Shown here piece after piece: positions 14,818 through 54,229 of a stretch of DNA of 54,236 nucleotides; position 1 is the first letter of the stretch, and every line of letters begins with the position of its first letter. Origin of the DNA: a virus. Taxonomy: Duplodnaviria > Caudoviricetes. Made by a program: the position numbers and the translations under genes. The notes beneath the pieces were generated by a model. The model was not told the DNA's origin. It ran no database searches and worked only from the letters and a program-made list of their open reading frames with translations. The DNA lies in IMG/VR virus record IMGVR_UViG_3300021962_000138, positions 1-54,236 of that record; one strand, given 5' to 3'.

Positions 14818-14979
14818 ATGGATTACGAATTATTATTTATAATATATGTAATTGGTTCACTACCTATTCTTATCCATAAAATTGTAGGAGATTTTAAAAT
14901 TCTCACCAAAGAATTTAAAGAAATTATGAAAGAGAAACAACAAAATGAACCGAAGGGATTTTGGAGGGGCTTAAAATGA
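14818..14979 (+). CDS. 53-aa protein with N-terminal hydrophobic helix
   Basis: MDYELLFIIYVIGSLPILIHK...; GAGGGG RBS; stop overlaps the PolB-C ATG. Confidence 0.5.
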   Translation: MDYELLFIIYVIGSLPILIHKIVGDFKILTKEFKEIMKEKQQNEPKGFWRGLK

Positions 14980-28100: not shown

Positions 28101-31100
28101 TAATCTTTCGGCTTTAGGGTCATAATGTTGCATCATGTCTTTTGCTAAATATCGAGAAGTCGAACTTGTAGGGTCGCTATCTACATAAATAGTATCTTTA
28201 GTGTGGCCACTTTCATAAATATTATAATCAAAATAAAGAGAACCTAATGGAGTTTCTCTTCCTCTAGCCTCTATTGGTAAATGCAAATGTGATAATTCTT
28301 CATATCTATCATGGACTATACCACTATTTGTAGAAATGTTACCTCCTATTTTGTATGCAGAAGCATAATATTTTAATTTATTAGGCAATTTATTGTAATA
28401 ATTTACTCCTAATTTGCTTGAAAAAGTTGTGATAGAAGAAGTAGAAATATTAAAATTGCCTTGTTCAATGTGATTTAATTTATATAATGGGTTGCCGAAT
28501 TTTTCAATTGAACTTGTATAATTTTGAAATGAAGGAGCAGTATAAAGTGTAGGCCTACCATCTATGGAACTACCGTAACCATCGTTTGCGTAGAATAAAG
28601 AATTAACTAAAGCCACAAATTTACCACCATGTAAATGTTCCCCATTTACAAAATATAAGTTGCTAGTCTTTTTAGGAGAATATAAACTAAAATAAGAAGG
28701 ATTAACAGAATCAGTAACAAGATAACTTACTTGTTTAAAAGTTTCATAAACAACTGCTCTATCAAGATAAACTCTCCAATTTGTAGAAAGGCTAGGTTTT
28801 ACCATTTGTGTGCAATAACCAACAAATAAATTATCTACATAGACGGCTCTCCCTTCGGGAATATTCGCTGTTTTACTGCTTAATTCTATGTATCTTCTAT
28901 TATCGGATAAAAAACTAGGAGGATTAGTAGAAGTTCCTATTAAATCATAATTAGCAATATCATATTGGTCGGCATCATTATAATCTAATCTCCCTAAAGT
29001 TATTGGAACATAAGGGGCTAACTCAATCGTAGTTTTTCCATCTGTTTTCGATACATTCAAAACTGTAAAATCTATAAGAGTATTTACTGTTTCAAAATTT
29101 TGTCTTGTTGTTTTTCCTAAATATGATTGAAACGATTCGCTTTTTCCTATTTTTTGAGGACTATAAATATGATAACCTAAAGCCCTAAAATCTGCACTTT
29201 CCGAAGTGCCAACCAAAGAACTACCATCGGAAACCTTTATTCCGCTTTCAAAAACTAACCCTTTGTCTGCCGAAGAACTCAAAGAAGTAGGAAAAACATC
29301 TAATTTATTATTCGATGATAGGGCTTTATTTAGCATATAGGCTCTTTGATTAGAAAGTCCATCTTTGTAGATTTGAAGTCCTGTGCTTATTGATAATGGA
29401 TATTTTTCTTCTAATGTTATTGCTTTGAGGCCACTATCATAAGTTCTAACAGTTCCAATCAATGAAAAATTATTACCATTGGTATTGTGTCTTACATACA
29501 ATTTATCGCCAACGCTCGGAGCAGAAGAAACAGTATTGAGAGTTAGTCCTATACTTGAATGGGTTAATGCACTTGATATTGTTCCTGTTAAAATTAATTT
29601 ATTTAATGGACTATCACTAGAATAAATAATATCTTGGGATTCTAATGTGTTCTCATTTATGATTGGAGAAATCATTTTAGAAAAAGTATTTCTTCCATAT
29701 ATTTTAAATAAATTTTGCCCCCTTTCTTTAACAATATCTAATTGTTCTATTTCTCCTTCAAATCTTTCTATTTCTATTGCATATTGTCCTTCATAATAAT
29801 CTAAATTAGATAATGTAGAATCATGAATATCTGTATTAAATGATAAAGATAATGTTTTTTGGGTGCTATTTATAGAAGTTATGTTTGCTTCCAATTGATT
29901 AAAAGGAGGACTATTGAAAATAACTTTTAAGTTATATTGTCTATCTTCTAATAATGGATAAGCAGTTATTAAATTATTTTTAGAAGGACTCCATGCTCTT
30001 CTTTTTAGTCTGTCATTTGCTGATAAAGTGTAAGAATTTGTTGTAAAAGAAGATTCTGTTTCTAATCTATTTTCACTTTCAAAAGTAATAGTTTGTTGAT
30101 TAGAACTAAATACACCTATTGCATTTACAATCAATATTCTTTCTCCGACCATAACTTCATCGTATTGAGAAATAAGGTCTGTCAAGTCATAATCAGTATC
30201 AAAAAGATATTGATTTCCACTAACATTTGAATTTACTAATGCCTTTAATGGTAAAAATTCATTAAAATTTCCAATATAAACTAAATGTCTTGCTCTTAAT
30301 ATATCAAATTCTTTTATTTTAGAACCCATTATTCTTGCAGTATCAACTATTTTTGTTTCGCAATAGCCTCCTCTTTGACCATGCGATTCAAATATTTTTA
30401 AATCTAAAACTAAATTATTACTATTATTTTTTTCGGGAGAATAGTCATAATGAATATATCTTTTATGTCCTAAAGCAACATAATTAACGCCCATAGTTGT
30501 TCCTATATAGTCGGAAACCCCCGAATTTGAACTTCTACAATTTATAAAACAAGTGCTATAATCAGTATAATTATTTGTCAAAACTGCAAAATCTTCATTA
30601 GAAGATGGTGAGTTTCTTGGGTCGTCTAATTCTCTAAGTTTATCTACTAAATTTGCTTTCATTGTGTATTTAGAATAATCAGTAATCCTTAAATTAAAAT
30701 CTTGCATTGTAATAAATGTAGTATTTTGGCCCAAAGAAATAGTTGCGGAAGAAAGATTATCAACTTCATAGGATAAATAATATTTAGTATTGTGGTCTAA
30801 TTCGTTCTTTTTATCAAGTCTATCATTATAAAAATAAAAAGAAGGTTTAGCAATATTAAATCCTTTATTTATTGCGTAGGAACTATTAGCAACTGAACCT
30901 GCCCGAACTCCAATAGTTACTGCAACTATTGTATTTTCTGTTTTAAGAGGCCCTTTAAAAACCATAAATTTAGTATCTTTAGGTATTTGGTTTCCTAATC
31001 TAGATTCAAATTCAAAAGAATCCCCCTCTACATCGTCTTGTGTGAATTGAGTAATTTTAGCAACATGGTGTTCTAAAGTAGAATCGGAATAAATTAAAAC

Positions 31101-31457
31101 GAAGTAATCATAAGTAGAATCAATAGTAACAAATGAACCCGAACCACTTGATTTAAACCGAATACCTGTTTGATATTCTTCATCCCAACATTTAATTTTA
31201 TATCCTTCTGTTGTTATTAAATTAGAATATTCTGTTCCCGCAGTATCGCTTCCTTGTAATTGTTGAACGAAATTTTCAGTATGTGTATCATCAATAGAAA
31301 CATATGCAAAAGTGCGATAATCAGTAGTGTAAGAAACAGTATCGTAAATAATTGGGTTTGTAGGACAATCAAAATTAATATTATTTAAGGAATTTCCATG
31401 ACCAATAATAGGTGTAGTATTTGGTGCAACACCCCTACGCATAACATAAATAGCCAT
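25101..31457 (-). CDS. giant (2118 aa) tail-tip hub/central fibre protein
   Basis: RFEGEI...IYGR hub segment and C-terminal YNEVIVYG..DLNSIKKQG..A..KA..LL..AGDII..YLILQIEH hub motifs. Confidence 0.7.
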   Translation of the reverse strand: MAIYVMRRGVAPNTTPIIGHGNSLNNINFDCPTNPIIYDTVSYTTDYRTFAYVSIDDTHTENFVQQLQGSDTAGTEYSNLITTEGYKIKCWDEEYQTGIRFKSSGSGSFVTIDSTYDYFVLIYSDSTLEHHVAKITQFTQDDVEGDSFEFESRLGNQIPKDTKFMVFKGPLKTENTIVAVTIGVRAGSVANSSYAINKGFNIAKPSFYFYNDRLDKKNELDHNTKYYLSYEVDNLSSATISLGQNTTFITMQDFNLRITDYSKYTMKANLVDKLRELDDPRNSPSSNEDFAVLTNNYTDYSTCFINCRSSNSGVSDYIGTTMGVNYVALGHKRYIHYDYSPEKNNSNNLVLDLKIFESHGQRGGYCETKIVDTARIMGSKIKEFDILRARHLVYIGNFNEFLPLKALVNSNVSGNQYLFDTDYDLTDLISQYDEVMVGERILIVNAIGVFSSNQQTITFESENRLETESSFTTNSYTLSANDRLKRRAWSPSKNNLITAYPLLEDRQYNLKVIFNSPPFNQLEANITSINSTQKTLSLSFNTDIHDSTLSNLDYYEGQYAIEIERFEGEIEQLDIVKERGQNLFKIYGRNTFSKMISPIINENTLESQDIIYSSDSPLNKLILTGTISSALTHSSIGLTLNTVSSAPSVGDKLYVRHNTNGNNFSLIGTVRTYDSGLKAITLEEKYPLSISTGLQIYKDGLSNQRAYMLNKALSSNNKLDVFPTSLSSSADKGLVFESGIKVSDGSSLVGTSESADFRALGYHIYSPQKIGKSESFQSYLGKTTRQNFETVNTLIDFTVLNVSKTDGKTTIELAPYVPITLGRLDYNDADQYDIANYDLIGTSTNPPSFLSDNRRYIELSSKTANIPEGRAVYVDNLFVGYCTQMVKPSLSTNWRVYLDRAVVYETFKQVSYLVTDSVNPSYFSLYSPKKTSNLYFVNGEHLHGGKFVALVNSLFYANDGYGSSIDGRPTLYTAPSFQNYTSSIEKFGNPLYKLNHIEQGNFNISTSSITTFSSKLGVNYYNKLPNKLKYYASAYKIGGNISTNSGIVHDRYEELSHLHLPIEARGRETPLGSLYFDYNIYESGHTKDTIYVDSDPTSSTSRYLAKDMMQHYDPKAERLFLFANADRLPYSSRRSDSLMSLVSSTDDLKNYNLLLLNQPSLDDYSDIQSSHLGGGKAKKYLDSDYDSAPISEVDKDISQLVRTGIMRLTEVTFDCFMNQINPEKIPSKKETIQNFNYKYHNITSLIETVSSYGSSQITLSGNVTLSDGDLLVDSEGNLIGVVNGIHSLVSIISLTANPIPTNNGAEYTGVLYKAEEKQVGIRGHGETESFVTFDENIHPLKSAFFNNSFDSSEWTTYHGAALQPTGVALKGNLTLPFSIKHTGSVIAFFGSGSTLGSLVHHSSLLLKKFDTFDYSSSVYSSSFMDNVLHFTALDVFNIENSTSEISKGTNSSPMYNIALRKFVSSQTLLLFKSTETNFLQYASSLTATTTTGTDLASGILYVNKIRLRIDVGETGSNVIEDTITSINNTTIYKYSITDEYLDFISDLTGTYLVSESGREFETGIQIDNSSLVLSSSTHHSANGINNMVPDIISYVISHEIDTSNSTRTHIIVTDKQLTNQFYRIMQPNETAFYEFTPKNIKLNTLSSEYTKKVFEDETYDSINDYHQKGSGTRFYTGSTRSPATLPHEKNHGHNEAILSMYVLVDLDCQTLSGIGRAELVPRTHTAASYVLRDFTNAEWDKPFVVCLSDGNTSFKTSMQLNFIGNYAFNGKEGSVITFDEMKELHGVVSLSEPFTITTNKTIQGTPKRALIGSVVSIGKETDYLVNSLMEKNDLEFTQDAEEYPVFATPNFKSTDLFSAVNYLLERKDKALIYEDSKFKILDKDSDRLNPRIKISDMTNKYQIRDFEKSDVLFDYYNEVIVYGRTHISKKRDLNSIKKQGKKTLEIQNNNILTQNEADKKAIELLRLHSSLNQKIILEIGHRNLSQIQAGDIIYLELKRENVQMDKYLILQIEHSLDGFMRLELGRFSKGLEDRLAEILIDAKQTKAAIRPNNLENVEENTFLTKFNIRERKLLVKSRTTTGAGSFTIGFVGTIGFSIPMGFGTGGTTTETIQVEQEL

Positions 31458-38042: not shown

Positions 38043-38244
38043 TTTTAAACAACTCCTTAACAACTTGTTTCTCTAAATATTTAAATAATTCTTCTTCTAT
38101 TTGTTTTAGTATTTCCTCATTTGAAAAAGTAATATCATATCCTAATATTCTTGAAGCATCGAGCATAAGTAAATTTCTTTCTTCGTATTTCTTGGCTAAA
38201 TCTGTAAGTTTAGATTCGATTTCTTTCATATTCATGTCAATCAA
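38035..38244 (-). CDS. small hypothetical protein
   Basis: 69-aa helical ORF between neck genes. Confidence 0.5.
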   Translation of the reverse strand: MIDMNMKEIESKLTDLAKKYEERNLLMLDASRILGYDITFSNEEILKQIEEELFKYLEKQVVKELFKNG

Positions 38245-39355
38245 TCAAATAAATAATATCCTTTTTGCCGTTTATTAACTCCATAGCCTCTTTTCTAAGA
38301 ATATCATATTTCTCTTTTGTGGAAATATTAGCACCTGTTTCGGCAATAAGAATAGTTTGGTCGTCATGTCTTAATATTTCTGCCGCAACTAATTTTGTGG
38401 CGGCTTCATGTATAGCAGAAGGAACCCTAGTATCGCCAACAATATAGGTAGTAAATACTGAATTCTTTTCATGGTAAGGATAACGCTTTAGGAAAAATAT
38501 TCTACCATCATTACCTAAAGTCCAAAAATCACCTAAACGCCTCATCTCTTGTTTATCTGTAAAATTAGTAACAATACTATTTGAATCCTGTCCTGCTTGG
38601 TCTGTTAATGTAATTGTGCAATCCGAACCATCTTCGCCTTCCAATAAACTAGAAATATGAACAATTTTACCGTCTTCCGAATCAGCATAAGCATAAAAAA
38701 AATCGGAAATATTGTAGCCATTTGTTGTAGAAGTCAAAATCTTTTCACTTGTAGCACCCGTAAATTGTGAAGTTTTAGCAGGATATGTTTCATTGATTAA
38801 AGAAATAATTTCTTGTGCAGTAGTTTTTGCCCCAAAAGAAGAATTAAATGAAGCAGAAGATAGTGGAGAATCTACATGACCATTGTATTTTAATACCCAT
38901 GTATCGCCTGAATTCGGCAATTGTAAAGTAATAGTATTTATTTTATTATAGCCGCTAGTATCTAACTGAATACTTGCTTGAGCAGAAGCCAATTCTCTAT
39001 AATTGTTGCCTTCCCATACTCGCAAACTTACAATTTTTCTAACTTTCATTTGGTTAAGTTGAATAAATCCAACATTACCACCATAATAAGAATGAATAGG
39101 GTGTCGAGTAAAATAAAAATCATTGACTTCGTGCATGATAATTGGTCTAAATGAACGGTTAATAGCATCATCAATAATGCCCTCTACTCTTTTAATTATT
39201 GAACCCACTTGGCCTTCTGTTGGATTTGTTAAATCGGTAAATTCGGGAATTTGTAGAAGGTCTGCTACTGCTACAACATCGGTATAATACCCATAGCCAT
39301 TAGCATAATCTACATTGATATTTGTATAATCGCTTGGGGAGGAAATTATAGGCAT
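38237..39355 (-). CDS. head-tail adaptor with inserted domain
   Basis: YTDVVAVADLL..II..E..ID N-terminus and Y..G..VP.AI.EAA.KLVA C-terminus typical of gp6/gp15-like adaptors. Confidence 0.7.
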   Translation of the reverse strand: MPIISSPSDYTNINVDYANGYGYYTDVVAVADLLQIPEFTDLTNPTEGQVGSIIKRVEGIIDDAINRSFRPIIMHEVNDFYFTRHPIHSYYGGNVGFIQLNQMKVRKIVSLRVWEGNNYRELASAQASIQLDTSGYNKINTITLQLPNSGDTWVLKYNGHVDSPLSSASFNSSFGAKTTAQEIISLINETYPAKTSQFTGATSEKILTSTTNGYNISDFFYAYADSEDGKIVHISSLLEGEDGSDCTITLTDQAGQDSNSIVTNFTDKQEMRRLGDFWTLGNDGRIFFLKRYPYHEKNSVFTTYIVGDTRVPSAIHEAATKLVAAEILRHDDQTILIAETGANISTKEKYDILRKEAMELINGKKDIIYLID

Positions 39356-40668
39356 TAGATATTCCTCTCAAGTATTTGTTTTAATTCAGTATAGTTTTCG
39401 CTGATACCCAAATAGAAGTCAAACAGTTCTTCTCTTAATTTTCTTAATTCATTGTCTTTACTAAGACTTAATGATATTGCATTTTCAATATTTTCCTTTT
39501 TGTCATTTTCTTTATCTGTCATTTTTCTTTTTAAATCGGCAATATCTATTTGTATTCTTTTTTGAACTTCGGGTTCTTCTTCTGTTGCATCTAATTCTTT
39601 TTCTTTTGTTTTTATTTTTGATTCTAACTCTTCTATTTCTTTATTGTATTTCTTACTTGCTTCTTCTGTCAATTCTTCAAATTTAATAGTATAATTAGAA
39701 TCTTCGGAAGTAAAGGCGGCAGGTAATCTTTCAAGTCTGCTTTCTCTCATAGGATTTCTTGTATAACGAATGTTTCCATTATTTGTTATTGTAACTAATG
39801 AATTTTCATAATCTACGACACGCCTTCCTTGTTTATCCTTTCCAATTAGTGCTAAATATATTTCAACATTATACGCATTCCTTAAATTAAATACATTCGT
39901 TCTAGCCGTAAGATAGTCTATAAGTCCTTCCACAAACCCATCTTTTATTGCTTGTTCTAAACTATCAAATAGTATTCTACGACCTAAACTTACTGCAAAT
40001 TCTTTTAAATCTATTATTGTTTCCTTTGGAGAATGACCTTCCAAAGAAGCATTATCAATAATTTCTTTAACAATATCTAAGGTATCAAATTCTATAAAAA
40101 TTCCATTTTCTTCTATTTTTACTGCTCCTTCTTTCTTAAGCAACTTTGTAAGAATATCTTCTAATTTACTACGGATAACATCTCTTACTTTTAAAGAAGG
40201 AGTTTCATCTTCTCTTCCTAATGTTAATGATTCCATTTCAGCAGAATATTCTCCCATTGAAACTTCATTAGAAATTGCATATTCGTTCAATTCTCCAACT
40301 TTTAAACTAGGAGTAAATGTAATAAATTCATTTAATATTATCTTACCATCTTCAATTTCAGCATCAAAATCTATTTGCTTTGAATAGTCTTTGAGCAATT
40401 GAGTAATTTCCAAACTTTCTAATTGTTTCAATTGAGCCAAAACAGTATCATAGAAAACACTAGCATTTTGTTTTGTTTCTTGTAATTGGTTTTGTTCCAA
40501 AAAATCTTCTTTATCCATAATATTTTCAAGAAGATTTTCTGCGGCTTCATGAGGTCTAGTATCATTAAAGTTAAAATTATCCCTTAATAAATACATTTTG
40601 AGAATATCGAGGCCCGATTTTTCCCAATCAACAATTTTACCCTCTTCAATAGAGATATTAAAGGCCAT
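39355..40668 (-). CDS. acidic coiled-coil hypothetical protein
   Basis: 437 aa, E/K-rich C-terminus. Confidence 0.6.
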   Translation of the reverse strand: MAFNISIEEGKIVDWEKSGLDILKMYLLRDNFNFNDTRPHEAAENLLENIMDKEDFLEQNQLQETKQNASVFYDTVLAQLKQLESLEITQLLKDYSKQIDFDAEIEDGKIILNEFITFTPSLKVGELNEYAISNEVSMGEYSAEMESLTLGREDETPSLKVRDVIRSKLEDILTKLLKKEGAVKIEENGIFIEFDTLDIVKEIIDNASLEGHSPKETIIDLKEFAVSLGRRILFDSLEQAIKDGFVEGLIDYLTARTNVFNLRNAYNVEIYLALIGKDKQGRRVVDYENSLVTITNNGNIRYTRNPMRESRLERLPAAFTSEDSNYTIKFEELTEEASKKYNKEIEELESKIKTKEKELDATEEEPEVQKRIQIDIADLKRKMTDKENDKKENIENAISLSLSKDNELRKLREELFDFYLGISENYTELKQILERNI

Positions 40669-40681
40669 ATTAACGGCCTCC

Positions 40682-41335
40682 TTACATTAACCATTTAGCC
40701 CAAGCAGCGCCTTTTTGGATTGCAGAACCTAAACCTAAGCCGCTACTTGGCGGCTGATATGTCATTTGTCCTGTTTGTTGGTCTATCCAATATGGTCTTC
40801 CGTAATTATCTTGGCCCGAAGGAGGGATAGGATAGCCACTACCGTTATTCATAGCATAAGCCCCTTGACCATATATTTGTTGTGCTTGACCGTATGTTCC
40901 GTTTGCTTGTTGAACACCTTGCATTCCTATTGCATTATTAAACCCTTGAGATTCTAAATATTGTTGTTTAGCCATTTTTCTTTGTGCAATAACTTCCGAA
41001 TCAATAGCACTATTCAACAAATTTTGAATGTCTAGAGTAATGTTCTCTTGAGTAATTTTTTCGTATTCTCTTAGTGAATCGGGATGAACTTTTATTGTTC
41101 CTGTTGTAGAATCTTGAACAAAAGATAACTTTACTAACATTTGAGAAGTTACTCTTTCAACAGTATCTTCTATGAGTTTTTCTAATGTTGTTAAAAATTT
41201 CATTCCATGATATTGAAAAAACTCTTCAACATGGTTTTCTTGTAAAGAAAGTAAATTATTTACAGTCTTAAAATTAGATTCATTTTGACCCGATATTGCA
41301 GTTACAATATCGGTATTGCTTGGGCCAAATACCAT
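40682..41335 (-). CDS. hypothetical protein with Q/G-rich tail, WW-like motif and terminal amphipathic helix
   Basis: GRPYWIDQQTGQMTYQPP; LGSAIQKGAAWAKWLM. Confidence 0.6.
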   Translation of the reverse strand: MVFGPSNTDIVTAISGQNESNFKTVNNLLSLQENHVEEFFQYHGMKFLTTLEKLIEDTVERVTSQMLVKLSFVQDSTTGTIKVHPDSLREYEKITQENITLDIQNLLNSAIDSEVIAQRKMAKQQYLESQGFNNAIGMQGVQQANGTYGQAQQIYGQGAYAMNNGSGYPIPPSGQDNYGRPYWIDQQTGQMTYQPPSSGLGLGSAIQKGAAWAKWLM

Positions 41336-41967
41336 TATTCTTCACCTTTTCCTTCAATCAAAAAGTCCATTCGTTCTAATGCAGTTCTTATTTCTTTAGA
41401 AAGTCGCATAACCTCTTGAGGAGGAGTTTCTTCTAAGTTTTTCATAGGCGGTTTTACTATCCAACCCCCTGCTATTAAACTCGCTATGTCCTCCTTTGAT
41501 AAAGTGGTTAGTGGCCCTTTAGATAAAACTTGCGGAATTCGGGGTTTAGGAATAAATGCTTTAAAATCTAATCCGTGTTCTTCTGCAAGAATTTGTTGTT
41601 GTAGCATTTCTCTTTGTTTAAAAATAGAAGCGTGTTTAGGACAATATGTGCCTTTCATTGGCTTGCCTTTATCCACTAATGCTAAGGGAAGAGGAGGCCG
41701 CATATAATCTCCCGAATCCCAAACATAATGTGTTCCACAAACTACGCAACGGTCTTTAATATTGAATTTAAAACCATACTGTATGAATATGAATTTTTTC
41801 TTTTCTGCTAGCAAAACCTTAGTAATTTCTTTGAGTTTTTTCTTTGGTTTAATACTTCTAAAAGTGTATTCTTCCACAGGCCCACTTGCTCTAGCCATCG
41901 CTAAAGGCGGCAAAAATGGGTTTGGTGCGTTTGTTGATGCTCCTATTAAATTCGGTTGTTGAAACAT
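41335..41967 (-). CDS. Pro-rich Zn-binding hypothetical protein
   Basis: CVVC...YCPKH; PFLPPL, RPPLPL. Confidence 0.6.
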   Translation of the reverse strand: MFQQPNLIGASTNAPNPFLPPLAMARASGPVEEYTFRSIKPKKKLKEITKVLLAEKKKFIFIQYGFKFNIKDRCVVCGTHYVWDSGDYMRPPLPLALVDKGKPMKGTYCPKHASIFKQREMLQQQILAEEHGLDFKAFIPKPRIPQVLSKGPLTTLSKEDIASLIAGGWIVKPPMKNLEETPPQEVMRLSKEIRTALERMDFLIEGKGEE

Positions 41968-41978
41968 TTTATCTTCTC

Positions 41979-42521
41979 CTATGTTTTATCTAAATATTTT
42001 TTCCATTCTTCAATCGTCATAAAGACTAATTTATCGGGTGAAATTGGTTTATTTGAAATATACCATTGTGTGCCTACTTGATATATTGGTGATTCTGCTC
42101 TATCCCAATCAATATTTTCTCCTCTAATGCCTATCATATTTCCATCAATGGTAACAATTTCTTCTTTTATCGCAGGATTAGGTAATAGATTTCCTTTTTC
42201 ATCAAATAACGAATTGTAATCTACTTTAACTTCTTTTCTTTTCTTCTGTCCGTATTCTAAAGGTAAGCCTTGTTCTTTCCCTGCCGCCCAAATCAATTTT
42301 GTTTTTTTGTTTTTTGGAGATACCATCAAATCTGCATGGTGGGGTTTTCCATATCCTGTTTCGTGTTGAATGTATTCGCCTTTAGGTAATAGTCCTTCTT
42401 GCATAATTTTTTCTTTCGGTGCTTTACTACCATGAAAATGAGTTATTTTTCCATGAGGATTTTCGGGATAATCTACAAAATTATACAGTTTAGTTTGTAT
42501 TTTTAATATATCAAACCACAT
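41979..42521 (-). CDS. putative ADP-ribosyltransferase-fold protein
   Basis: FHGS..EKIMQEGLLP, IWA, C-terminal W....ISPDKL, as in ART/Tpt1-like domains. Confidence 0.5.
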   Translation of the reverse strand: MWFDILKIQTKLYNFVDYPENPHGKITHFHGSKAPKEKIMQEGLLPKGEYIQHETGYGKPHHADLMVSPKNKKTKLIWAAGKEQGLPLEYGQKKRKEVKVDYNSLFDEKGNLLPNPAIKEEIVTIDGNMIGIRGENIDWDRAESPIYQVGTQWYISNKPISPDKLVFMTIEEWKKYLDKT

Positions 42522-42526
42522 AATAA

Positions 42527-43195
42527 TCAGTAGTCCTTTATCATTGTCATAATTCCTCTATACACCATTTCGGGTTGTGATTTTGCCGACACTATATACT
42601 TAAAACAAGGTATTCCTTTTTCGTTTAGTTTTTGCATTCCGTATTTGAAAGGTTCAAAGATAGGGTGCTTATCAATTTCGCCTTCATGCTTGTGTTTCTC
42701 TCCCCATATATCATGTTTGTTAGCCCAAATACCCACCGCTAAAGGATAATCTTCATTCTTTTTCTTTTTTCCGTTAGGCCAAACGCTTGCACATATTCCA
42801 TCTACTAAAAATTTCCATGCTAATTGGTGGTCTAAATTAGCGGGGCTATCTAAATGTCTATGGTCTATCATAAAAATAATATATTTTACATTTCTTTTTT
42901 GTATATCATCAATCCATGCTCGCCAATACATTGACTCTCCGCCAACATCAGCACTTCGTATAGTGTTTGCATTACCATCAATTTTGATTATTTTTCTAGA
43001 AGCCCTTTCGAGTCCAACCGTTCTATGTTTGATTTGAGGCACTTCTCCTCTTGTTCTCATTTGATGGCTAAGTGTAGTTTTACCTACCATAGTTGAACCA
43101 TAAACACCAAAATTGATTGCATGAACTCTTTTATAAAAGGAATAAACTGCTTCCGTAAGGACTACCGCAAATCCCGTAAGTAACGAAATATCCAT
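42527..43195 (-). CDS. Arf/Sar-like small GTPase
   Basis: G1 GSTMVGKT, G2 RTVG, G3 DVGGE, IIFMID, G4 ANKHD, G5 SAK; N-terminal hydrophobic helix. Confidence 0.88.
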   Translation of the reverse strand: MDISLLTGFAVVLTEAVYSFYKRVHAINFGVYGSTMVGKTTLSHQMRTRGEVPQIKHRTVGLERASRKIIKIDGNANTIRSADVGGESMYWRAWIDDIQKRNVKYIIFMIDHRHLDSPANLDHQLAWKFLVDGICASVWPNGKKKKNEDYPLAVGIWANKHDIWGEKHKHEGEIDKHPIFEPFKYGMQKLNEKGIPCFKYIVSAKSQPEMVYRGIMTMIKDY

Positions 43196-43200
43196 TCCTC

Positions 43201-43404
43201 CTAATGAAACAGACCTACAACTTTACTAATTAACCAACCCATGATATTTATGTCAAAAACGCCTAAAATATTACCAATTAGAAAGGAACCTATAACAAAA
43301 CAAGAACCCCAAAACCACATTCTCATTTGCATCAACCAAATGTCAGCAGAATGAGCGCGTTGTAAATCATAGGCTATTGTGGTTTCATCGAAGCCTAAAA
43401 CCAT
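43201..43404 (-). CDS. small membrane protein
   Basis: TM segment WFWGSCFVIGSFLIGNILGVF followed by an amphipathic tail. Confidence 0.65.
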   Translation of the reverse strand: MVLGFDETTIAYDLQRAHSADIWLMQMRMWFWGSCFVIGSFLIGNILGVFDINIMGWLISKVVGLFH

Positions 43405-43412
43405 TAAAACAC

Positions 43413-43802
43413 CTATTGTAGTGTTGTTAGGAATTCTGCTCCAATACCATCTTCGTCATATTGTGCTATTCTAGGAGCAGTATTGTATTCTTGTTTAAAA
43501 GATTTAATTGAGTCTTTCATACGCTTTCTTTGTTCTTCTTCTTTTTGTTTGAGTTCCCAATAGGCACTAATTCTACGGTCTAATAGCCATGATTCTATCC
43601 AATCATTTAGGAGTAAATCATTCAATGCTTTCATAACAAGAATGCCTCCTACGGTAATTAAACCAAAAAGAATACCATGTTCTAATGCTCCATATGGAAA
43701 ATCTATTCCATAATTTGCATACATGAATACATTTGTTCCGCTAATCGTTCCAACAAATAAGATTGTCATAATCAATCTTGTATCTTTATCTAAAGCCGCC
43801 AT
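43413..43802 (-). CDS. two-TM membrane protein with charged coiled-coil tail
   Basis: LIMTILFVGTISGTNVFMY and GILFGLITVGGILVM; KQKEEEQRKR. Confidence 0.7.
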   Translation of the reverse strand: MAALDKDTRLIMTILFVGTISGTNVFMYANYGIDFPYGALEHGILFGLITVGGILVMKALNDLLLNDWIESWLLDRRISAYWELKQKEEEQRKRMKDSIKSFKQEYNTAPRIAQYDEDGIGAEFLTTLQ

Positions 43803-43811
43803 AAAAAGACC

Positions 43812-44135
43812 TCAATTAAATTCTACCGAATAGGCAAAGTGAGAACTAGGAGAAGGACTAACAGGAGCCGTTACTTCTGCATAAAGTCCTTCTCTAGCCA
43901 ATACTCCGTGCATATCCGCTTCTACATTTTGTGCGGAAGTATTTCCATTAAAGACAAAACGGCAAAGTTCTGTATTTCCTGTAAATGTTGCATCGTTAGA
44001 ATCATATATTTTTAGAATATATTCATCGGGGCCATCTGCTTTACAAGTAATATGAATACTTTTCAAATTACAAGCATTTCCACAAATTAAAGCACTAGTT
44101 GTTAATACACCACTTGACCTTGAAGCATCGGGCAT
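43812..44135 (-). CDS. small beta-rich virion protein (putative)
   Basis: 107 aa, beta-sandwich-like pattern, downstream of the capsid gene. Confidence 0.5.
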   Translation of the reverse strand: MPDASRSSGVLTTSALICGNACNLKSIHITCKADGPDEYILKIYDSNDATFTGNTELCRFVFNGNTSAQNVEADMHGVLAREGLYAEVTAPVSPSPSSHFAYSVEFN

Positions 44136-44184
44136 TACATCACCTATACAATCCTAAGAATATACCTTTAATGAAACTTTTGTT

Positions 44185-44511
44185 TCATTCTTCGGTTTTC
44201 TTAGGTGTTGTTTTCTTTGTAGGAACTTTTTTAATTTCCTTTGTTGGTAAAAGAATTGAAACAATGGTTTCGATATTCTCTTCACAACCCAAAGAAGTAG
44301 CCAACATATTAATTTCTCTTTCGGGAAGAGCCATAAGAGGCTCCCTATCTGCTTCTGTAAAGGTAATGTTTAACTTTGGACTTGAAAGGTAGTGAGAAGC
44401 AGTAAAGGTTGAAATTTCTGTTTCTTCTTTACTAACTTCAAACCACCCTTCTTGTCCTTTAAGTTTCATTGAATCTTCTAGAACAATTTCTGTTAATTGA
44501 ATTGTGGCCAA
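44185..44511 (-). CDS. hypothetical protein
   Basis: TTG start after GGAGGG; K-rich tail. Confidence 0.55.
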   Translation of the reverse strand: MATIQLTEIVLEDSMKLKGQEGWFEVSKEETEISTFTASHYLSSPKLNITFTEADREPLMALPEREINMLATSLGCEENIETIVSILLPTKEIKKVPTKKTTPKKTEE

Positions 44512-44523
44512 TTAAGACCCTCC

Positions 44524-44790
44524 TCAATTACCGTATGCAACCCAAATGCCGTCAGTATCGGCAGTAGTAACAATTGTTACATTACCACTAGCCAAAGGAA
44601 ATGTTTCATTTACTGCGGGTGCATTTGTATCAACGGCTGAACCTCTAACTTGAAGATGAATAAAATCTACACGGTTAAGACCTGTTTCAATATCTCCTCC
44701 TGTATCGGAACCGCCATTGGTAAATGTTCCATAAGCAACTCTTTTATTACCGAACACCGTAGTTTCGGTGATTGTTGATGAAAAAGCCAT
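44524..44790 (-). CDS. putative capsid decoration protein
   Basis: 88 aa, G/T-rich, immediately after the capsid gene; GAGGTGA RBS. Confidence 0.5.
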   Translation of the reverse strand: MAFSSTITETTVFGNKRVAYGTFTNGGSDTGGDIETGLNRVDFIHLQVRGSAVDTNAPAVNETFPLASGNVTIVTTADTDGIWVAYGN

Positions 44791-44801
44791 CTTTAATCAC
44801 C

Positions 44802-46136
44802 TCAAGCGATGTTAGTAATCTTTGCTTGTCCTCTAAAGAAGGAACAACCTGTTTCAGCAATTGTTCGATACAATGCTTGATTTCCTAGACGGCCTACACC
44901 GAATGGGTTTCCGTTGCTAATACCATCTTCAAAGTATTGAGTTGGTTTCAAAACTTGAAGCCACAAGTGGTCTGTATCAAGGAATAGCATATCGCTAATT
45001 CCACTATCTGCTGAATTTCGTGTTCCTGTCATTTCCTTAACAGGAATAAGAGGAATGTCGTAGTATGTTGCTACACGGAATCCAACTTCTTGACCCTTTA
45101 CACCACGAACACCATTAACAGTAGGAATAACTTCCTTTCTATCCATGAATCTTTCTTGTGCTTGGAGCAAATCAGCAATTGCTTGAATGGTGTCATATCC
45201 TGTTAGGATAACCTTTGGTGAACCACCTGCTTCTCGGAGTTGTCGAATAACCGAGTTGATAAGAGTCAAGGTTAGAGGTCGAACTGATGATGCGGCATAT
45301 GATGAGTTGAAATCAACAATTGCATCAAGATAAGAAGCCGCAGTAAATCGCTCTTCACCGTAGATTTTACCGAGATTGTTAGTAGCAGAAGTTGTATCTG
45401 TTGCGAGAACTCCGCCATCAAGAGCAAGAAGTTCTGCTCGGCTTGTAACAATCTTAAGGAGTGAAGTATAGTTTCGCTCAATATCTGCTAGTGCGCTTGA
45501 TTCACCATAGAATTCAAGTGGCATAACCAACATTTTGTTTTGTGCTTCTGCGTGTGCTTTACCCATATCTTCTCGGATAATTGCTCGAATATCGCCTAGT
45601 CCATCATCAATTTGAGCCATTTCCATAGCGAGTTCGGAAATATCAAATTGGTGTGCAATTGTCTTAGGCGACATGAAAAGTTGTGCGTAAGTAGGAGCCA
45701 TAGAACTAAGTCCATCTGCCGTAGTAGAAAGTCCTGCGTTTTCGGGAACACCACCAATCTCGTCTGCTTGTGGGTCATCGGAACCGATACCGCCTCCGCT
45801 TCCATCGGATTGTAGAGTCAATGTGTTTCCACTACCACCAAAAGGACGACTCTTAAGAATACGCCATCCACTTGAATTGTATGGCCTCTTAGAAAGCATA
45901 GCCAAAGCATTAACCTCTCGGTTAAGCATTGACCATACTTTTTGTCCGTAAAGAACATTGTAAAGTCCTGTTGTTCCTGTAATTCCTGTTACTCCGCTTG
46001 CGGAAGCATCTGTAATATCGTGTGCAGTATGTAGTCCTTGAACTACACCTGCTTGCTTAAGGAGAGAATTTCCTCCAAAGGCAGGTAGGCCGTATGTTGA
46101 TGCTTCCAAATCTCTAATTGTGTTAATATATCCCAT
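44802..46136 (-). CDS. major capsid protein (HK97 fold)
   Basis: Follows protease/scaffold; E-loop-like ...PKTIAH..ISEL, spine helix, G.P..ILT, Y.DIPL; real start MGYINT after GAGGTGA (the ORF-track start 46205 is too long). Confidence 0.85.
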   Translation of the reverse strand: MGYINTIRDLEASTYGLPAFGGNSLLKQAGVVQGLHTAHDITDASASGVTGITGTTGLYNVLYGQKVWSMLNREVNALAMLSKRPYNSSGWRILKSRPFGGSGNTLTLQSDGSGGGIGSDDPQADEIGGVPENAGLSTTADGLSSMAPTYAQLFMSPKTIAHQFDISELAMEMAQIDDGLGDIRAIIREDMGKAHAEAQNKMLVMPLEFYGESSALADIERNYTSLLKIVTSRAELLALDGGVLATDTTSATNNLGKIYGEERFTAASYLDAIVDFNSSYAASSVRPLTLTLINSVIRQLREAGGSPKVILTGYDTIQAIADLLQAQERFMDRKEVIPTVNGVRGVKGQEVGFRVATYYDIPLIPVKEMTGTRNSADSGISDMLFLDTDHLWLQVLKPTQYFEDGISNGNPFGVGRLGNQALYRTIAETGCSFFRGQAKITNIA

Positions 46137-46146
46137 GTTTTTCACC

Positions 46147-47343
46147 TCAATATTCTCCGCTAACCGCTTTATGAATATCGCTCCATGACATATCGGAAAT
46201 TTCATCTAGTGAAAAGACCTTTACTGTAGAAGCAACTTCTTGGGCTTTGCGAATTTCATTCTTTTCTTCTGTAAGCGACTTTCGGAGTTCGCTAAATTGT
46301 GTCTTAAGATTTGTAATTTCTGCTTGTGCATTGTATTCTGCTTTAGCAACCAAATCATTACGAGAAGCAACTTCTTGCTTAAATCGTGTTTCAAATTGCT
46401 TTTCTAATCGGCCATAAGCCAATTTTTCAAGTTGTTCTTGTCGAAATTGCTCATAGGCTTTCTCGATGTTTTCGTTTGAAAGGTTGAGCGAAGTAAATTC
46501 ATTGTTACTGAATGCTTTAGTAACATTGTGTTCCTTAAAAGCCTGTGAATCGCCTGTTGGTCGGCCACCACTAACTACAACATTATCAGCAGGTTCGCCA
46601 TCTTCAATTGAACCTGCGTCAAGGGTTGGAGTTGGGCCTTTCATTTCACTATCATCGGCTTTATCATATCCCATCATTTCTTCTTCGCCATCAGTTGTGT
46701 CCATCATTTCTTCCGATGGATGGCCACTACCATAGCCTTTTTCTTCTTCTTCTTCTTTACGAAGTTGATTTACTTCCTTTAGAAGCATATCAAGTTCGCT
46801 TAATGCTTTTTCTAGTTTTGTCATATTTTTCACTTCCTGTTTTAAGATGTCAAATTTCGCTTCGGGGTTAATTCCTTTTTCGCATATGGTAACTTCGTGT
46901 AATTCAAGTTTGCTAATCTCATTGTATTCGCCTAACTCTTCATTACGCTTTTTTACTTTTTGTAACGCCTGTCCTCCAATGCTAAAACTTCTTAACGAAC
47001 CTTTGCGAATGCCTCTATTTATTTCCTTTGCTTTTTCTATATCATCTCGGAGTTTAATTACAACAAAGAAGCCCACATCATCTACTTCTGTTTTCCATAA
47101 CCTCCCCGATTTATCCCTGTATGAATCTACTACTTCTCCGACTTGAACATTAGAATGATTTGTCATTACATTACGAAATCTATCTTTTTCCATAAATTTC
47201 TTTACTGCTCCCTCCAATGCTTTTAATGTAATCAAGTCGTTTTGCTTATCTACCATTTCTATTGAAGCATATCCACCAATCATTAAATCTTCATTTGCCT
47301 TTAGTATCATAAAGTCATTGTTTTTATGAAGCATTAGTGTCAT
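46147..47343 (-). CDS. HK97-type prohead protease fused to scaffold
   Basis: GYAS..VDKQND, NH..QVG, G.L.SFSIGG, L.EVT..G.NPEA, then an acidic linker and coiled coil. Confidence 0.9.
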   Translation of the reverse strand: MTLMLHKNNDFMILKANEDLMIGGYASIEMVDKQNDLITLKALEGAVKKFMEKDRFRNVMTNHSNVQVGEVVDSYRDKSGRLWKTEVDDVGFFVVIKLRDDIEKAKEINRGIRKGSLRSFSIGGQALQKVKKRNEELGEYNEISKLELHEVTICEKGINPEAKFDILKQEVKNMTKLEKALSELDMLLKEVNQLRKEEEEEKGYGSGHPSEEMMDTTDGEEEMMGYDKADDSEMKGPTPTLDAGSIEDGEPADNVVVSGGRPTGDSQAFKEHNVTKAFSNNEFTSLNLSNENIEKAYEQFRQEQLEKLAYGRLEKQFETRFKQEVASRNDLVAKAEYNAQAEITNLKTQFSELRKSLTEEKNEIRKAQEVASTVKVFSLDEISDMSWSDIHKAVSGEY

Positions 47344-49816
47344 CGGCTTCAACTTCCTTTGTTCTATCTTGACTATTTAAGTGCTTCGCTTTATTTTGTA
47401 ATTTAAGGTCTTTGAACTTGTCATTATAAATATTCCAAATACCTTCATCTGTGCTTTTATCAACGGGTTTTTGTTCATAGCCCGTCCATGCTATCCACAT
47501 TTTTTCTCCTTTTGTTTCTACAACTCTAAAATGAAGTTTAGTTTCAAACTTATTTCCTTTTAGAATGTATTCATGATAGCCATGTCTTTGAACACCTAAT
47601 TGAACTTCTCCTTCATCAAGTAATTTAGTTCTATCTATATTTGTAGATATTTCAGCAGGATATTTTACGGCTTTTCCAAAGAAAGCAAAAATATCATCAT
47701 CAGTAGCAATATCAATATTCCAATTTAGAATTTCTTCTTTATGCTCTACTGCAAAAGAAAGATTGCCGTCCTTTCTAAGATAGACTTTAAATTGAGAAGA
47801 TTCTTTAACAATTTTATCATGTTCTGCAATTACAATATTATTTTTAACTGTAAGACCATCTCTTAAATTAATCCATTCTCCTAGTTCTTTTTTATTAGAT
47901 TCTAGTAGAGTTTCATAATCATTAGCATATTCTTTTAAAAGAAAATTATGAACATCTATAACTGTTTGGGGTTTATTTTTATTTTTGATGAAGTTAATTA
48001 TTGCTACTGTAAGTTTTCCTTGCATCGTTTTGAGAGTTTCTTCTGCTTCTTCTTTCCAAAAATCTAAATCTTGTAGGGCATTCTTAGACATTAGATTGTT
48101 TTCTTGAAAACCATAAATAGTAAATCCGTCCATACTTTTAGCAATAATAGTAGCAGTTCCGTGAATATTATCTGTAATCGTTATACCTTTTTTAAGAGCC
48201 TCAACATTATATTTTAGAGAAGGCTTAGTATCTTTAGCCAACATCTCTAATGTAACTATTTTATCGGGTTCTTCGACTTCGGGTATTTCTATGACCTTAG
48301 CAGAATAAAGTGTATATTTTCCCCCACTTTCTTTTACTTCATCTACTTTGACTCTAATGATTTGGCCAACATCAACAACGGTTTTTGTGTTGAGGGCTTT
48401 ACCAACATTCATGTAAAATTTACCGTTTATTTCAGTTCCGCCCTCTTCTTCATCAATTGGCCCTGCCCCTAAAGTATAGGAATACATACCCGATTTTGTG
48501 CCTTTCTTATCAAGAACAATCAAATCTAAATCTACAAATTTCTTCCATTTTACCCATTTAGGATTTTTCTTTGTTCCTATGAAATATGTGGATTCTATAT
48601 CCTTGATAACAACTCCTTCGGAAGTAGGCATTTCCATAATTTCTTCTGCGTATTCCTTTACATCTTTTAGATTATCTGCAATCCTAGTATCTTTTTTAGA
48701 AGGAAAGAATAAATCTTCCGAAGATTTTGTAGAGTAATTATTGAATAGAATATTGATTCTTTTTCTCAATGGTTCATCTGTTAGTTTTTGATTTTCATGC
48801 CTCAAAATATCAAAAACATGGGCTTTGAGTCTAGACTCTTTGTAGGAATTTTTGAAAATATGGGCTATTGTATCGGCCCTATGAAGTGCTTTATCACCAT
48901 CAAACAGTATCAATTCAGCATCAAGAATACAATCCCCGTATTCCTTTTTCTCTAATTCTTTGACTTGTTCTTTACACTTCTCGGTAATGTCTTTTTCATT
49001 ATATGAATAGATTGAAACCTTGCCGTCTATTTTGTGTAATTGGATTCTCATTCCGTCATATTTTTCTTGAACTACATATTCTCCGCTAAACCCTTTGAGT
49101 TCATTCATATCTTCAATGTCAAAAATTCGATACATTGGTTTATTTGGAACTAAGAAATGAACATTCGCTTTTTGTTCTTTTTGAATTTCTACAAGTTCTT
49201 CAAATTCTTCTTCTTCATGTTTTGAGAAATAAAATAATTCTAGAATGTTAAGTGCTTCCTCTACTTTCTTTTCTACTTGTTTTGTATCTTTATCATCACC
49301 ATAATGTTCAATAATATAGAGGCTAATATCTTCTTCTTGTAAATCAAGACCTTGAAGCCCGACAGTTAAAGTATCTTCTTCCATATCTTTGATTGAATAT
49401 ATATCTTTAGGTAGGGCTTTATCATCGGAGCGAAGAGCATAATGAACAAATTTAACCATTGTTTCGGGCGAAGATAAAAGAGCCTCTAATACATCTCCCT
49501 TAAATTTGTCAGCGAATGGGTCTTCTACTTTTTCGGAATCATATCTCATAAGTTTAATTGCTTCATAAATATCTTTAGCAACATTCGATTCGGGGTTTTT
49601 AGCATCTTTATCTTCTATTTTTTCTTCTCCAACATAATTTTCTAATTCGTCTTTTATTTCCGAAGAAAAGGCTCGATTGATTTCTTCAATGATATTTCGC
49701 CAACGCCCCCCATATTCTTTGGGGTCTTCTTTTGCTGAAAGATATGCTACTCTTGTTTTCTCAAAGAGTCGAAGGATTACATTAGAAGCGTTATCTTTTT
49801 CGATAAGATACGCCAT
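47324..49816 (-). CDS. second ATP-dependent ligase-like multidomain protein in the head module
   Basis: QEKYDGMR, LDAEL, FDIL, EGVVIK, WVKWK, OB domain; long acidic N-terminus and extra C-terminal domain. Confidence 0.85.
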   Translation of the reverse strand: MAYLIEKDNASNVILRLFEKTRVAYLSAKEDPKEYGGRWRNIIEEINRAFSSEIKDELENYVGEEKIEDKDAKNPESNVAKDIYEAIKLMRYDSEKVEDPFADKFKGDVLEALLSSPETMVKFVHYALRSDDKALPKDIYSIKDMEEDTLTVGLQGLDLQEEDISLYIIEHYGDDKDTKQVEKKVEEALNILELFYFSKHEEEEFEELVEIQKEQKANVHFLVPNKPMYRIFDIEDMNELKGFSGEYVVQEKYDGMRIQLHKIDGKVSIYSYNEKDITEKCKEQVKELEKKEYGDCILDAELILFDGDKALHRADTIAHIFKNSYKESRLKAHVFDILRHENQKLTDEPLRKRINILFNNYSTKSSEDLFFPSKKDTRIADNLKDVKEYAEEIMEMPTSEGVVIKDIESTYFIGTKKNPKWVKWKKFVDLDLIVLDKKGTKSGMYSYTLGAGPIDEEEGGTEINGKFYMNVGKALNTKTVVDVGQIIRVKVDEVKESGGKYTLYSAKVIEIPEVEEPDKIVTLEMLAKDTKPSLKYNVEALKKGITITDNIHGTATIIAKSMDGFTIYGFQENNLMSKNALQDLDFWKEEAEETLKTMQGKLTVAIINFIKNKNKPQTVIDVHNFLLKEYANDYETLLESNKKELGEWINLRDGLTVKNNIVIAEHDKIVKESSQFKVYLRKDGNLSFAVEHKEEILNWNIDIATDDDIFAFFGKAVKYPAEISTNIDRTKLLDEGEVQLGVQRHGYHEYILKGNKFETKLHFRVVETKGEKMWIAWTGYEQKPVDKSTDEGIWNIYNDKFKDLKLQNKAKHLNSQDRTKEVEADDTNAS
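47373..47380 (-). promoter_or_regulatory. putative TATA box for protease-capsid transcript
   Basis: TTAAATAG about 30 nt upstream of ATG 47343. Confidence 0.3.
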
Positions 49817-53815: not shown

Positions 53816-54229
53816 CTACCAATTGAAGTTACAAGCCCACCAACCCGCAGTTAGTTTGTTTTTCTTGTCCTTACAATTGTGCCTTGATTTGAAATTTTTT
53901 CTTCTTTCGGGGTCTTTGTGTTGAAGGAAATCTTCCATTCCTCTAAACCCAAAATTGACAATTTTAATAATGGACTTCCCTCTTTCATAGACTCTAGCCA
54001 ATACTCGATATTTGCTTTGGCTACCCTTTGGGGCTCTTTTGGGTTTATTAAAAGCAGGAAATGTTTCTCCCCGATATTTAATTTGACCACTTTTTGTTCT
54101 TTCAACATCAGCCTTTACAATAGAATGAAATGCTTCATCGGATATGCAATCATCACAACATGATTTCATAAAAATATCATCGGGTATCTCATAATGAATT
54201 TCTTCTTTTAGTATTGTTTTCCAAATCAT
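53816..54229 (-). CDS. basic protein resembling DUF5754-type viral proteins
   Basis: KYRV..KIVNFG..GM.D...HKDPERRKNF..RH.C...TAGWW (family recalled from memory, not searched). Confidence 0.55.
   Translation of the reverse strand: MIWKTILKEEIHYEIPDDIFMKSCCDDCISDEAFHSIVKADVERTKSGQIKYRGETFPAFNKPKRAPKGSQSKYRVLARVYERGKSIIKIVNFGFRGMEDFLQHKDPERRKNFKSRHNCKDKKNKLTAGWWACNFNW

Follow-up and report, generated by a model that had tools for sequence, protein, structure and literature searches.

A conserved five-gene cassette around a small GTPase in magrovirus-like genomes: a predicted viral form of the GTPase membrane switch

Six co-oriented genes lie tightly packed on the minus strand at positions 40682-43802 of the IMG/VR virus record IMGVR_UViG_3300021962_000138, and five of them are described here as a cassette built around a small GTPase. 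The record was analysed over its whole length of 54,236 bases (the window; completeness estimate 58%), and we call it magrovirus-like because its gene content fits the description of Marine Group II magroviruses in excerpts of PMC5434244. In order of transcription the six open reading frames (ORFs) encode TM2 (129 aa, 43413-43802), a protein with two hydrophobic helices; TM1 (67 aa, 43201-43404), a single-pass membrane protein; a small GTPase of the Ras superfamily with a hydrophobic N-terminal helix (222 aa, 42527-43195); g180 (180 aa, 41979-42521), which occupies a variable insertion slot and stands outside the conserved cassette; ProZn (210 aa, 41335-41967), with a putative zinc site formed by C74, C77, C109 and H112; and QG (217 aa, 40682-41335), made up of a helical core, a Q/G-rich linker, a beta unit and a C-terminal helix. 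The gaps between these genes are -1 to 13 nt, and the packing and common orientation are as an earlier reading, made from the letters without database searches (the sequence-only reading), had described them. That the five genes other than g180 form a true conserved cassette, with the character of a membrane-associated GTPase system, we consider well founded, since the GTPase retains every nucleotide-binding motif and is encoded next to membrane proteins. Membrane association is suggested because hydrophobic segments occur in TM2, in TM1 and at the N-terminus of the GTPase, where a helix is predicted at residues 3-24. Relatives of the cassette were found in three lineages, here named group 1 (that of the window), group 2 and group 3; the labels are those of the present analysis and differ from the published magrovirus groups.

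Scanning IMG/VR with the window GTPase returned 71 loci at 62-78% identity, and tblastn across them recovered one fixed order: scaffold/protease, major capsid protein (MCP), variable small genes, g107, TM2, TM1, GTPase, a variable slot, ProZn, QG, a long variable protein and a 372-aa ORF, g372. Counting was restricted to loci that reach at least 1.3 kb upstream and 3.2 kb downstream of the GTPase gene, and in 47 of 47 such loci the five genes were present in the same order and on the same strand. TM2 and TM1 occurred together at every one of the 66 loci with at least 1.3 kb upstream, and ProZn and QG together at 51 of 51. Median identities were 77% for the MCP, 72.5% for the GTPase, 65% for QG, 60% for ProZn, 57% for TM2 and 56.5% for TM1, which makes the GTPase gene the second most conserved of the neighbourhood after that of the MCP.

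The arrangement extends well beyond these close relatives. A further 80 IMG/VR loci, which constitute group 2, encode P0013-like GTPases about 35% identical to that of the window. Their layout begins with a 170-220-aa protein with hydrophobic helices and a basic coiled-coil tail, followed by a 78-100-aa single-pass protein, the GTPase, sometimes an insert, a 292-348-aa ProZn-like protein, a 190-229-aa Q/G-rich protein and an extra two-TM (transmembrane) protein of 77-94 aa. Among the group-2 loci in which the GTPase ORF could be placed, the two downstream ORFs had the expected sizes in 75/76 and the two upstream ORFs in 67/76. Profile hidden Markov models (HMMs) matched ProZn in 67 of the 80 loci, in the ORF directly after the GTPase gene, and QG in five of 80, in the next ORF; the membrane-protein models matched in none. 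Profile-profile comparison of groups 1 and 2 by hhalign joined the ProZn families (96.6%, E 7e-10, over the zinc core and a shared G-T-Y-C-P motif) and the helical cores of QG (86.9%, E 4.2e-6). Group 3, with P0014-like GTPases, comprises four loci, and the two examined have the same five genes in the same order, with HMM matches for a large membrane protein (1e-16 to 1e-18), ProZn (2e-51 and 9e-30) and QG (3e-9 to 1.4e-13). Homology across lineages is thus supported for the GTPase, ProZn and QG, while the membrane proteins of groups 1 and 2 match in architecture alone. The synteny that the sequence-only reading had proposed to look for was therefore present for five genes and recurs as a layout in two distant lineages, but it does not include g180, which was not co-conserved.

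The block is kept together although it does not stay in one place. In each of three long group-2 records it is found upstream of the portal gene, at a distance of about 12 kb, and about 23 kb from the MCP gene, on the same strand as both; in these records the MCP gene and the homologue of g372, which flank the cassette in the window lineage, are about 2.8 kb apart, with the cassette elsewhere. In the group-3 locus L159 (2250-3785) it stands directly downstream of a thermosome-like chaperonin gene, unlike its neighbourhoods in both other lineages. Because the internal order was kept while the genomic location changed at least twice, the five genes appear to be a functional unit, which argues against simple collinearity, and the changed location also argues against an obligatory head-neck structural role. 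Mobility as a unit is in this respect an observation of the same kind as the gene structure, the motifs, the fold class and the co-conservation.

The GTPase contains all five G motifs, with G1 GSTMVGKT, a G2 threonine, G3 DVGG, G4 NKHD and G5 SAK at residues 33, 59, 83, 159 and 203, respectively. In 32 aligned sequences from two lineages G1, T59, D83/G85/G86 and N159/K160/D162 are invariant. Its AlphaFold2 (AF2) model (predicted local distance difference test, pLDDT, 67; predicted TM-score, pTM, 0.68) has G-domain topology after the helix at residues 3-24, and a Foldseek search of the PDB with this model gave 723 matches at E <= 0.001, headed by Rab, Ras, Rap and G-alpha proteins (target TM-score, TMt, 0.42-0.67). 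By its five G motifs and its G-domain fold the protein belongs to the Ras superfamily (TRAFAC class), and the earlier identification of a small GTPase stands. A hydrophobic segment occupies its extreme N-terminus (peak 1.48, Kyte-Doolittle, 19-residue window), and such an N-terminal segment was found in all the distant relatives.

Placing the protein within the superfamily is less direct. Its Pfam hits are all sub-threshold (Roc, G-alpha, Ras, MMR_HSR1 and SRPRB), and Pfam Arf (PF00025, gathering cut-off 22.3 bits) gave no match at E <= 1. Weak hits among 19 close homologues were to MMR_HSR1 in 18, Roc in 17, Ras in 15, SRPRB in 13 and Arf in one (E 0.016); NCBIfam contributed generic GTPase models only, all sub-threshold, and sequence searches of the PDB with the GTPase, ProZn and QG profiles gave nothing significant. 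The connection to Arf runs through more distant proteins. Four of the ten distant relatives scanned (P0036, P0059, P0074 and P0078) pass the Pfam Arf cut-off at 27-36 bits; these four are among the eight distant relatives in alignment A15, which hhalign aligned with the viral GTPase alignment A11 at 99.9% and E 8.5e-35 over 194 columns. A homologue search with A15 found relatives of P0078 named SR-beta, SAR1-family or Arf-like in their sources, followed by Der GTPases; OapA was absent among the proteins found. The motifs also vary by lineage: G3 is DVGGE in the window, D[IVLM]GG[QED] in group 2 and DIGGH in group 3, and G5 is a Ras-like SAK in the window and MAT in group 2. By transitive homology, then, the window GTPase is classed as Arf/Sar/SR-beta-like and falls outside Pfam Arf proper, so that the "Arf-like" label given to it earlier applies through its distant relatives only, the window protein itself giving sub-threshold Roc, Ras and SRPRB hits.

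Hydropathy bears out the earlier count of membrane segments in both upstream proteins. TM2 has two hydrophobic helices at about residues 10-28 and 39-57 (peaks 1.60 and 1.82), followed by a charged tail, probably a coiled coil, that ends in a conserved EFL..LQ motif; mean column identity in an alignment of 19 homologues is 58%. TM1 has a single peak of 1.85 at residue 34 and, N-terminal of its helix, a RAHSA motif that is invariant in an alignment of 25 homologues. The counterpart of TM1 in group 2, identified by position, carries LRAxH ahead of its single TM helix, and the group-2 counterpart of TM2 is similar in architecture. Applied to these alignments, the positive-inside rule predicts a cytoplasmic location for the conserved N-terminus of TM1 and for the charged tail of TM2, which would allow both to contact the GTPase.

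ProZn is rich in proline, as noted before (20 of 210 residues, 9.5%), and has just three cysteines (74, 77 and 109), with H112 completing the CxxC..CxxH pattern. It also carries a conserved G-T-Y-C-P-K-H motif, an RPPxPL motif and a C-terminal helix. The start of QG overlaps the stop of ProZn by 1 nt in the window and by 8 nt in the group-2 locus L118, and a start/stop overlap is shared by the window and the listed group-2 loci. ProZn and QG have no detectable homology to coat proteins, GTPase-activating proteins (GAPs) or guanine nucleotide exchange factors (GEFs). In the ESM Atlas ProZn gave only leads below 0.9, to small unnamed proteins, and QG gave no usable match. We considered ProZn as an ArfGAP-type finger and rejected this, its cysteine spacing being different from that of ArfGAPs and an invariant arginine being absent.

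The model of QG (pLDDT 62, pTM 0.32) consists of long helices at residues 7-68, a hairpin and further helices to residue 129, a disordered Q/G-rich stretch at 132-165, a beta unit at 175-192 (pLDDT about 83) and a terminal helix at 203-216. The helical core (about 7-129) contains an ITQENI motif, and the terminal helix is Gly/Trp-rich and amphipathic. Foldseek with this model gave no match below E 1, and a SepF-like fold was not seen. The same three elements recur in the homologues of each of the three lineages: a helical core, a low-complexity stretch rich in Q, G and M, and a C-terminal tail that is Gly-rich and either hydrophobic or amphipathic. This combination makes QG the best candidate for a membrane-active effector. 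The Q/G-rich linker and C-terminal helix thus agree with the sequence-only reading, but its WW-like motif is only a lead. Pfam WW (PF00397) scored 12.9 bits against QG (cut-off 26.9; E 0.12) over model positions 11-31 only; both signature tryptophan positions are substituted, the second by Y; and about half of the rows listed by Foldseek were WW domains, over 23-25 columns at a root-mean-square deviation of 1.2-2.0 A, all with E >= 1. The WW-like unit is absent from the group-2 and group-3 homologues, and it and the invariant RPPxPL motif of ProZn are both restricted to group 1. The two are present or absent together, as a contact specific to that lineage would allow, but this would reflect one evolutionary event at most. 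A contact between a WW unit and proline as the conserved core of the system is therefore rejected.

The sixth gene fared differently. The sequence-only reading had called g180 ADP-ribosyltransferase (ART)-like; it has no match in Pfam and no sequence match in the PDB, no ART family appeared in Pfam at E <= 1 or among PDB sequence hits at E <= 10, and tblastn found no match to it in the 71 related loci. As a non-conserved slot singleton without an ART match, it is rejected both as an ADP-ribosyltransferase and as a member of the system. The slot that holds it, between the GTPase and ProZn genes (41979-42521), and the one between TM1 and the GTPase (43196-43200 in the window) are insertion hot spots: across the 71 loci they hold 41 ORFs of at least 50 aa in 14 similarity clusters, g180 being a singleton. 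Nine of these ORFs, from eight clusters, and one group-2 insert matched no Pfam family above cut-off. The slot ORFs could be accessory or anti-defence cargo, or homing elements. In group 2 an ORF of 54-89 aa often lies between the GTPase and the ProZn-like gene (for example L118, 6727-6906), again with no Pfam match above cut-off; by eye we take it to resemble a small swapped-hairpin DNA-binding protein.

The GTPase family looks virus-restricted. A profile of 19 GTPase sequences run against 1.84 billion representative proteins gave 78 matches at E <= 0.001, many of them fragments, and of these the 15 full-length proteins fetched comprised six that resembled the magrovirus-like GTPases and nine unplaced metagenomic proteins. 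Profile A11, run against genomes covering 185,579 species, matched four contigs, which belong to two bacterial metagenome-assembled genomes (MAGs). These contigs (L163-L166) are magrovirus-like and were binned with the alphaproteobacteria Maricaulis and Parvibaculum, three of them in one MAG; L165 and L166, the two examined, contain the whole group-2 cassette. Binning contamination is the most likely explanation, rather than bacterial hosts. No match to the GTPase was found by tblastn among 50,697 deposited phage and archaeal-virus records. Viral-contig scans with P0036, P0065 and P0012 and metagenome-contig scans with A16 and P0065 gave no match, nor did a thermosome scan of genome contigs. 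The most distant GTPase relatives are cluster singletons on contigs of 1.5-11 kb, and tblastn of P0078 against plasmids gave one match, in Nostoc. Structural comparison with BFVD by Foldseek returned 28 hits at E <= 0.001, and the 49 named entries among the 50 rows listed all belong to giant viruses of eukaryotes.

In the window the cassette stands in the structural part of the genome. On the minus strand the gene for an SU10-type MCP (44802-46205), itself preceded by that for a prohead protease (46147-47352), is followed by three small ORFs, the cassette with g180, a 437-aa ORF and g372 (38237-39355), which lies upstream of the tail-tube gene. The cassette is thus indeed downstream of head genes, as the sequence-only reading had it, but the "neck gene" on its other side, g372, matches only a PHROG of unknown function. 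One arm of the window encodes a thermosome-type chaperonin, a split family-B DNA polymerase, an RFC-like clamp loader, an ATP-dependent ligase and a Cas4-like nuclease; the other encodes the portal, an 830-aa protein with a second ligase domain, the prohead protease, the MCP and a tail-tube-like protein. Scanning 40 window ORFs found no lysin-like Pfam family, in agreement with the earlier remark that no endolysin is recognisable. No RNA sequencing run was found to match 38237-47352; three runs of a single study, covered as contigs only, share about a third of its sequence words. Magrovirus hosts are Marine Group II archaea, uncultured and abundant in surface oceans, and the gene order within magrovirus modules is generally conserved, according to the same excerpts of PMC5434244.

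Several other genes deserve mention in their own right. The 437-aa protein encoded after QG (39355-40668) looks like a coiled coil, and its counterparts by position in related loci are 356-810 aa long; tblastn across the 71 loci detected no similarity to them, and the gene is a fast-evolving one set between the cassette and the conserved g372. In the structural module the 830-aa protein (47324-49816) has an ATP-dependent DNA ligase domain at residues 240-425, the remaining residues (about 600) forming long flanks without assignment, and the family-B DNA polymerase is divided between two ORFs (12765-14510 and 14961-15890) about 450 nt apart. A ligase inside the structural module is a known magrovirus trait, and a split family-B polymerase has also been described for one magrovirus subgroup (PMC5434244, in excerpts). 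The tail region contains an ORF of 2118 aa (25101-31457) with no Pfam family at E <= 0.001. A 137-aa protein encoded upstream of the portal (53816-54229) matches Pfam DUF5754 (E 1.3e-9), and a homologue of it occurs about 4 kb upstream of the cassette in L139.

We suggest, tentatively, that the cassette encodes a GTPase switch, expressed late, by which the host membrane is remodelled or breached so that virions can leave. This role is ranked first because the archaeal ArvABC system offers a precedent, because excerpts of PMC10791045 describe the means by which tailed archaeal viruses lyse and leave their hosts as wholly uncharacterised, and because the 40 ORFs scanned contain no lysin. We infer the topology, contacts, timing and membrane effect of the following scheme. 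The cassette, transcribed together with the morphogenesis genes, would equip the host membrane on its cytoplasmic side with a switch controlled by GTP. There the conserved cytoplasmic segments of TM2 and TM1 would dock or activate the GTPase, which in its GTP-bound form would hold the membrane by its N-terminal hydrophobic helix, as is thought for Arf, Sar1 and ArvA, and would recruit the translationally coupled ProZn and QG. ProZn may be a Zn-ribbon-type regulator, possibly GAP-like as proposed for ArvC, and QG the likely effector, whose low-complexity region and Gly-rich amphipathic tail would act on the bilayer. Late remodelling or breaching of the host membrane would then release the virions, with GTP hydrolysis as a timer or reset. 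In a more detailed version the cassette would be a vesiculation or lysis machine of the Arf/Sar/ArvA-like type: the membrane-anchored GTPase, once activated at the two viral membrane proteins, would call in a Zn-ribbon regulator together with a membrane-active low-complexity effector, and the host membrane would open or bud. This version is possible and, to our minds, rather doubtful.

Several observations weigh against a membrane-release switch. The HMMs for ArvB/OapB (PF09846) and ArvC/OapC (PF09845) match nothing in the window even at E <= 10. In the GTPase itself, G3 reads DVGGE, with Glu in place of the catalytic Gln of Arf. No arginine is invariant in ProZn across the lineages, and one group-3 ProZn lacks the His ligand; both observations weaken its reading as a GAP or zinc protein. 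Between lineages the hhalign comparisons of the membrane proteins are not significant (E 0.15 for TM1; 0.042 and 0.072 for TM2 and a further comparison, respectively), and the best holin PHROG match of TM2 reaches only E 0.25. We infer late expression from co-orientation alone, and the location of the block between head and neck genes in the window lineage is equally compatible with an assembly role.

That assembly role is the most serious competitor, though we think it unlikely: the cassette would tether or organise capsid assembly or DNA packaging at the membrane, in the manner of an assembly-site or chaperone-like system, or some of its proteins would be minor virion components, with no remodelling or breaching of the membrane. 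Its position between the MCP gene and g372 in the window lineage, with gaps of -1 to 13 nt, its co-orientation with the portal and MCP genes in 3/3 group-2 records and its place beside the chaperonin gene in L159 all fit such a factor. Set against this, the location relative to the head genes is not kept, lying 12-23 kb away in group 2; none of the five proteins matched a PHROG structural family; and HK97-type tailed-virus capsids need no membrane. The same lack of linkage to head genes in the other lineages counts against an entry apparatus, whose proteins would be packaged, ejected with the DNA and form or regulate a channel in the host membrane, like some phage ejection proteins. Small TM proteins among the head genes of the window lineage and the Gly-rich amphipathic tails of the QG homologues would suit it, but a nucleotide switch of the cytosol is difficult to square with a site of action within a capsid, we know of no ejection system that uses a GTPase, and we judge this reading quite improbable.

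A function in host takeover or exclusion, with a membrane GTPase complex that alters functions of the host envelope (division, transport or vesicle traffic, for example) or blocks superinfection and has no part in release, takes its appeal from the slots flanking the GTPase gene, which gather unrelated small ORFs (41 in 14 clusters) as accessory loci often do, and from the absence of the GTPase family from the cellular genomes scanned, except for the four apparently mis-binned contigs in two bacterial MAGs. Unlike typical accessory genes, however, the cassette is strongly conserved and occurs in every examined member of three lineages, and it is co-oriented with late genes; such a function seems decidedly unlikely to us. 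Finally, the five genes could be unrelated neighbours that general genome collinearity has kept side by side, as the generally conserved gene order of magrovirus modules (PMC5434244, in excerpts) might lead one to expect. Yet the order of the block is constant while its location differs in three lineages, its neighbours g107, g437 and g180 are variable or unlinked, and the relocations in group 2 and L159 largely refute this explanation, to which we attach hardly any credence.

In the literature searched, neither magroviruses and a GTPase in combination nor any treatment of GTPases encoded by tailed viruses was found, and the terms GTP and GTPase do not occur in the main text of PMC5434244, PMC11706807, PMC10160649 or PMC8651126 (supplements lay outside this search). 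The nearest precedent found comes from excerpts of PMC11529989, where an Asgard genome is reported to carry a pair of small GTPases within an integrated, mobile-like region. The cassette, which three magrovirus-like lineages share, is a concrete, clonable candidate for egress, and magroviruses rank with the most abundant archaeal viruses in the surface ocean. If a membrane-release role is correct, no egress system would have been identified before it in tailed archaeal viruses, nor a GTPase-driven one in any prokaryotic virus, and membrane remodelling driven by GTPases, which eukaryotes and archaeal ArvABC exemplify, would be extended to viruses of prokaryotes. With this family the Arf/Sar/SR-beta-like GTPases also gain a branch that looks confined to viruses, a point relevant to the spread of such switches before eukaryotes.

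Among known systems, phage holin cassettes resemble the viral genes in encoding small, late-expressed membrane proteins (a predicted timing in the present virus) that have one or two TM helices and C-termini with charged residues, and the tailed virus studied here has no other recognisable lysis gene. They differ in that no significant holin match and no lysin partner was found here, topology alone being compatible; moreover, we know of no holin system that uses a GTPase, a zinc protein or a low-complexity protein. The Ras, Rab and Ran GTPases of giant viruses are likewise virus-encoded and have the same fold, but they are host-derived trafficking GTPases without a cassette of this kind with its N-terminal hydrophobic helix or these partners. 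SR-beta (SRPRB, PF09439) comes closer, as an Arf-related GTPase anchored by an N-terminal hydrophobic helix; sub-threshold SRPRB hits occur in 13/19 family members and one distant relative is named SR-beta in its source, although the window GTPase scores 12.6 bits against a cut-off of 25 and has no SR-alpha-like partner.

The coat systems Sar1/COPII and Arf/COPI combine a GTPase that has an N-terminal amphipathic helix with a membrane-protein activator (Sec12) and a Zn-finger GAP (Sec23, ArfGAP). The viral GTPases of groups 2 and 3 share with these the DxGG[QH] form of G3; that of the window differs in its DVGGE and in its SAK G5, and its top structural hits are Rab and Ras, not Arf.

The closest known analogue is ArvABC (OapABC), a vesiculation operon of Haloferax volcanii and other archaea. 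In H. volcanii ArvA (HVO_3014), an Arf-like GTPase with an N-terminal amphipathic helix, is needed for extracellular vesicles, whose output rises on loss of the Zn-ribbon protein ArvC and drops on loss of ArvB, reported to have a SepF-like fold (PMC10927574, in excerpts). Common to both systems are a single-domain GTPase of less than 250 aa with an N-terminal membrane-binding helix (a predicted one in the virus) and Arf-like affinities, whose operon also encodes a Zn-ribbon protein (a putative zinc protein in the virus) and another small protein. The viral side adds two membrane proteins, and its QG is modelled as helical, not SepF-like. Since the OapB and OapC models match nothing in the window, the parallel is one of analogy: a different CxxC..CxxH protein, ProZn, fills the position expected for ArvC, and the action of ArvABC on the cytoplasmic membrane has as its viral counterpart a proposal only. 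The "eukaryote-like parts" of the sequence-only reading were accordingly an overstatement for an Arf/Sar/SR-beta-like clade of prokaryotic viruses with a functional analogue in archaea. By this comparison the cassette is a new viral form of the small-GTPase membrane-switch theme, with a predicted function at the host membrane.

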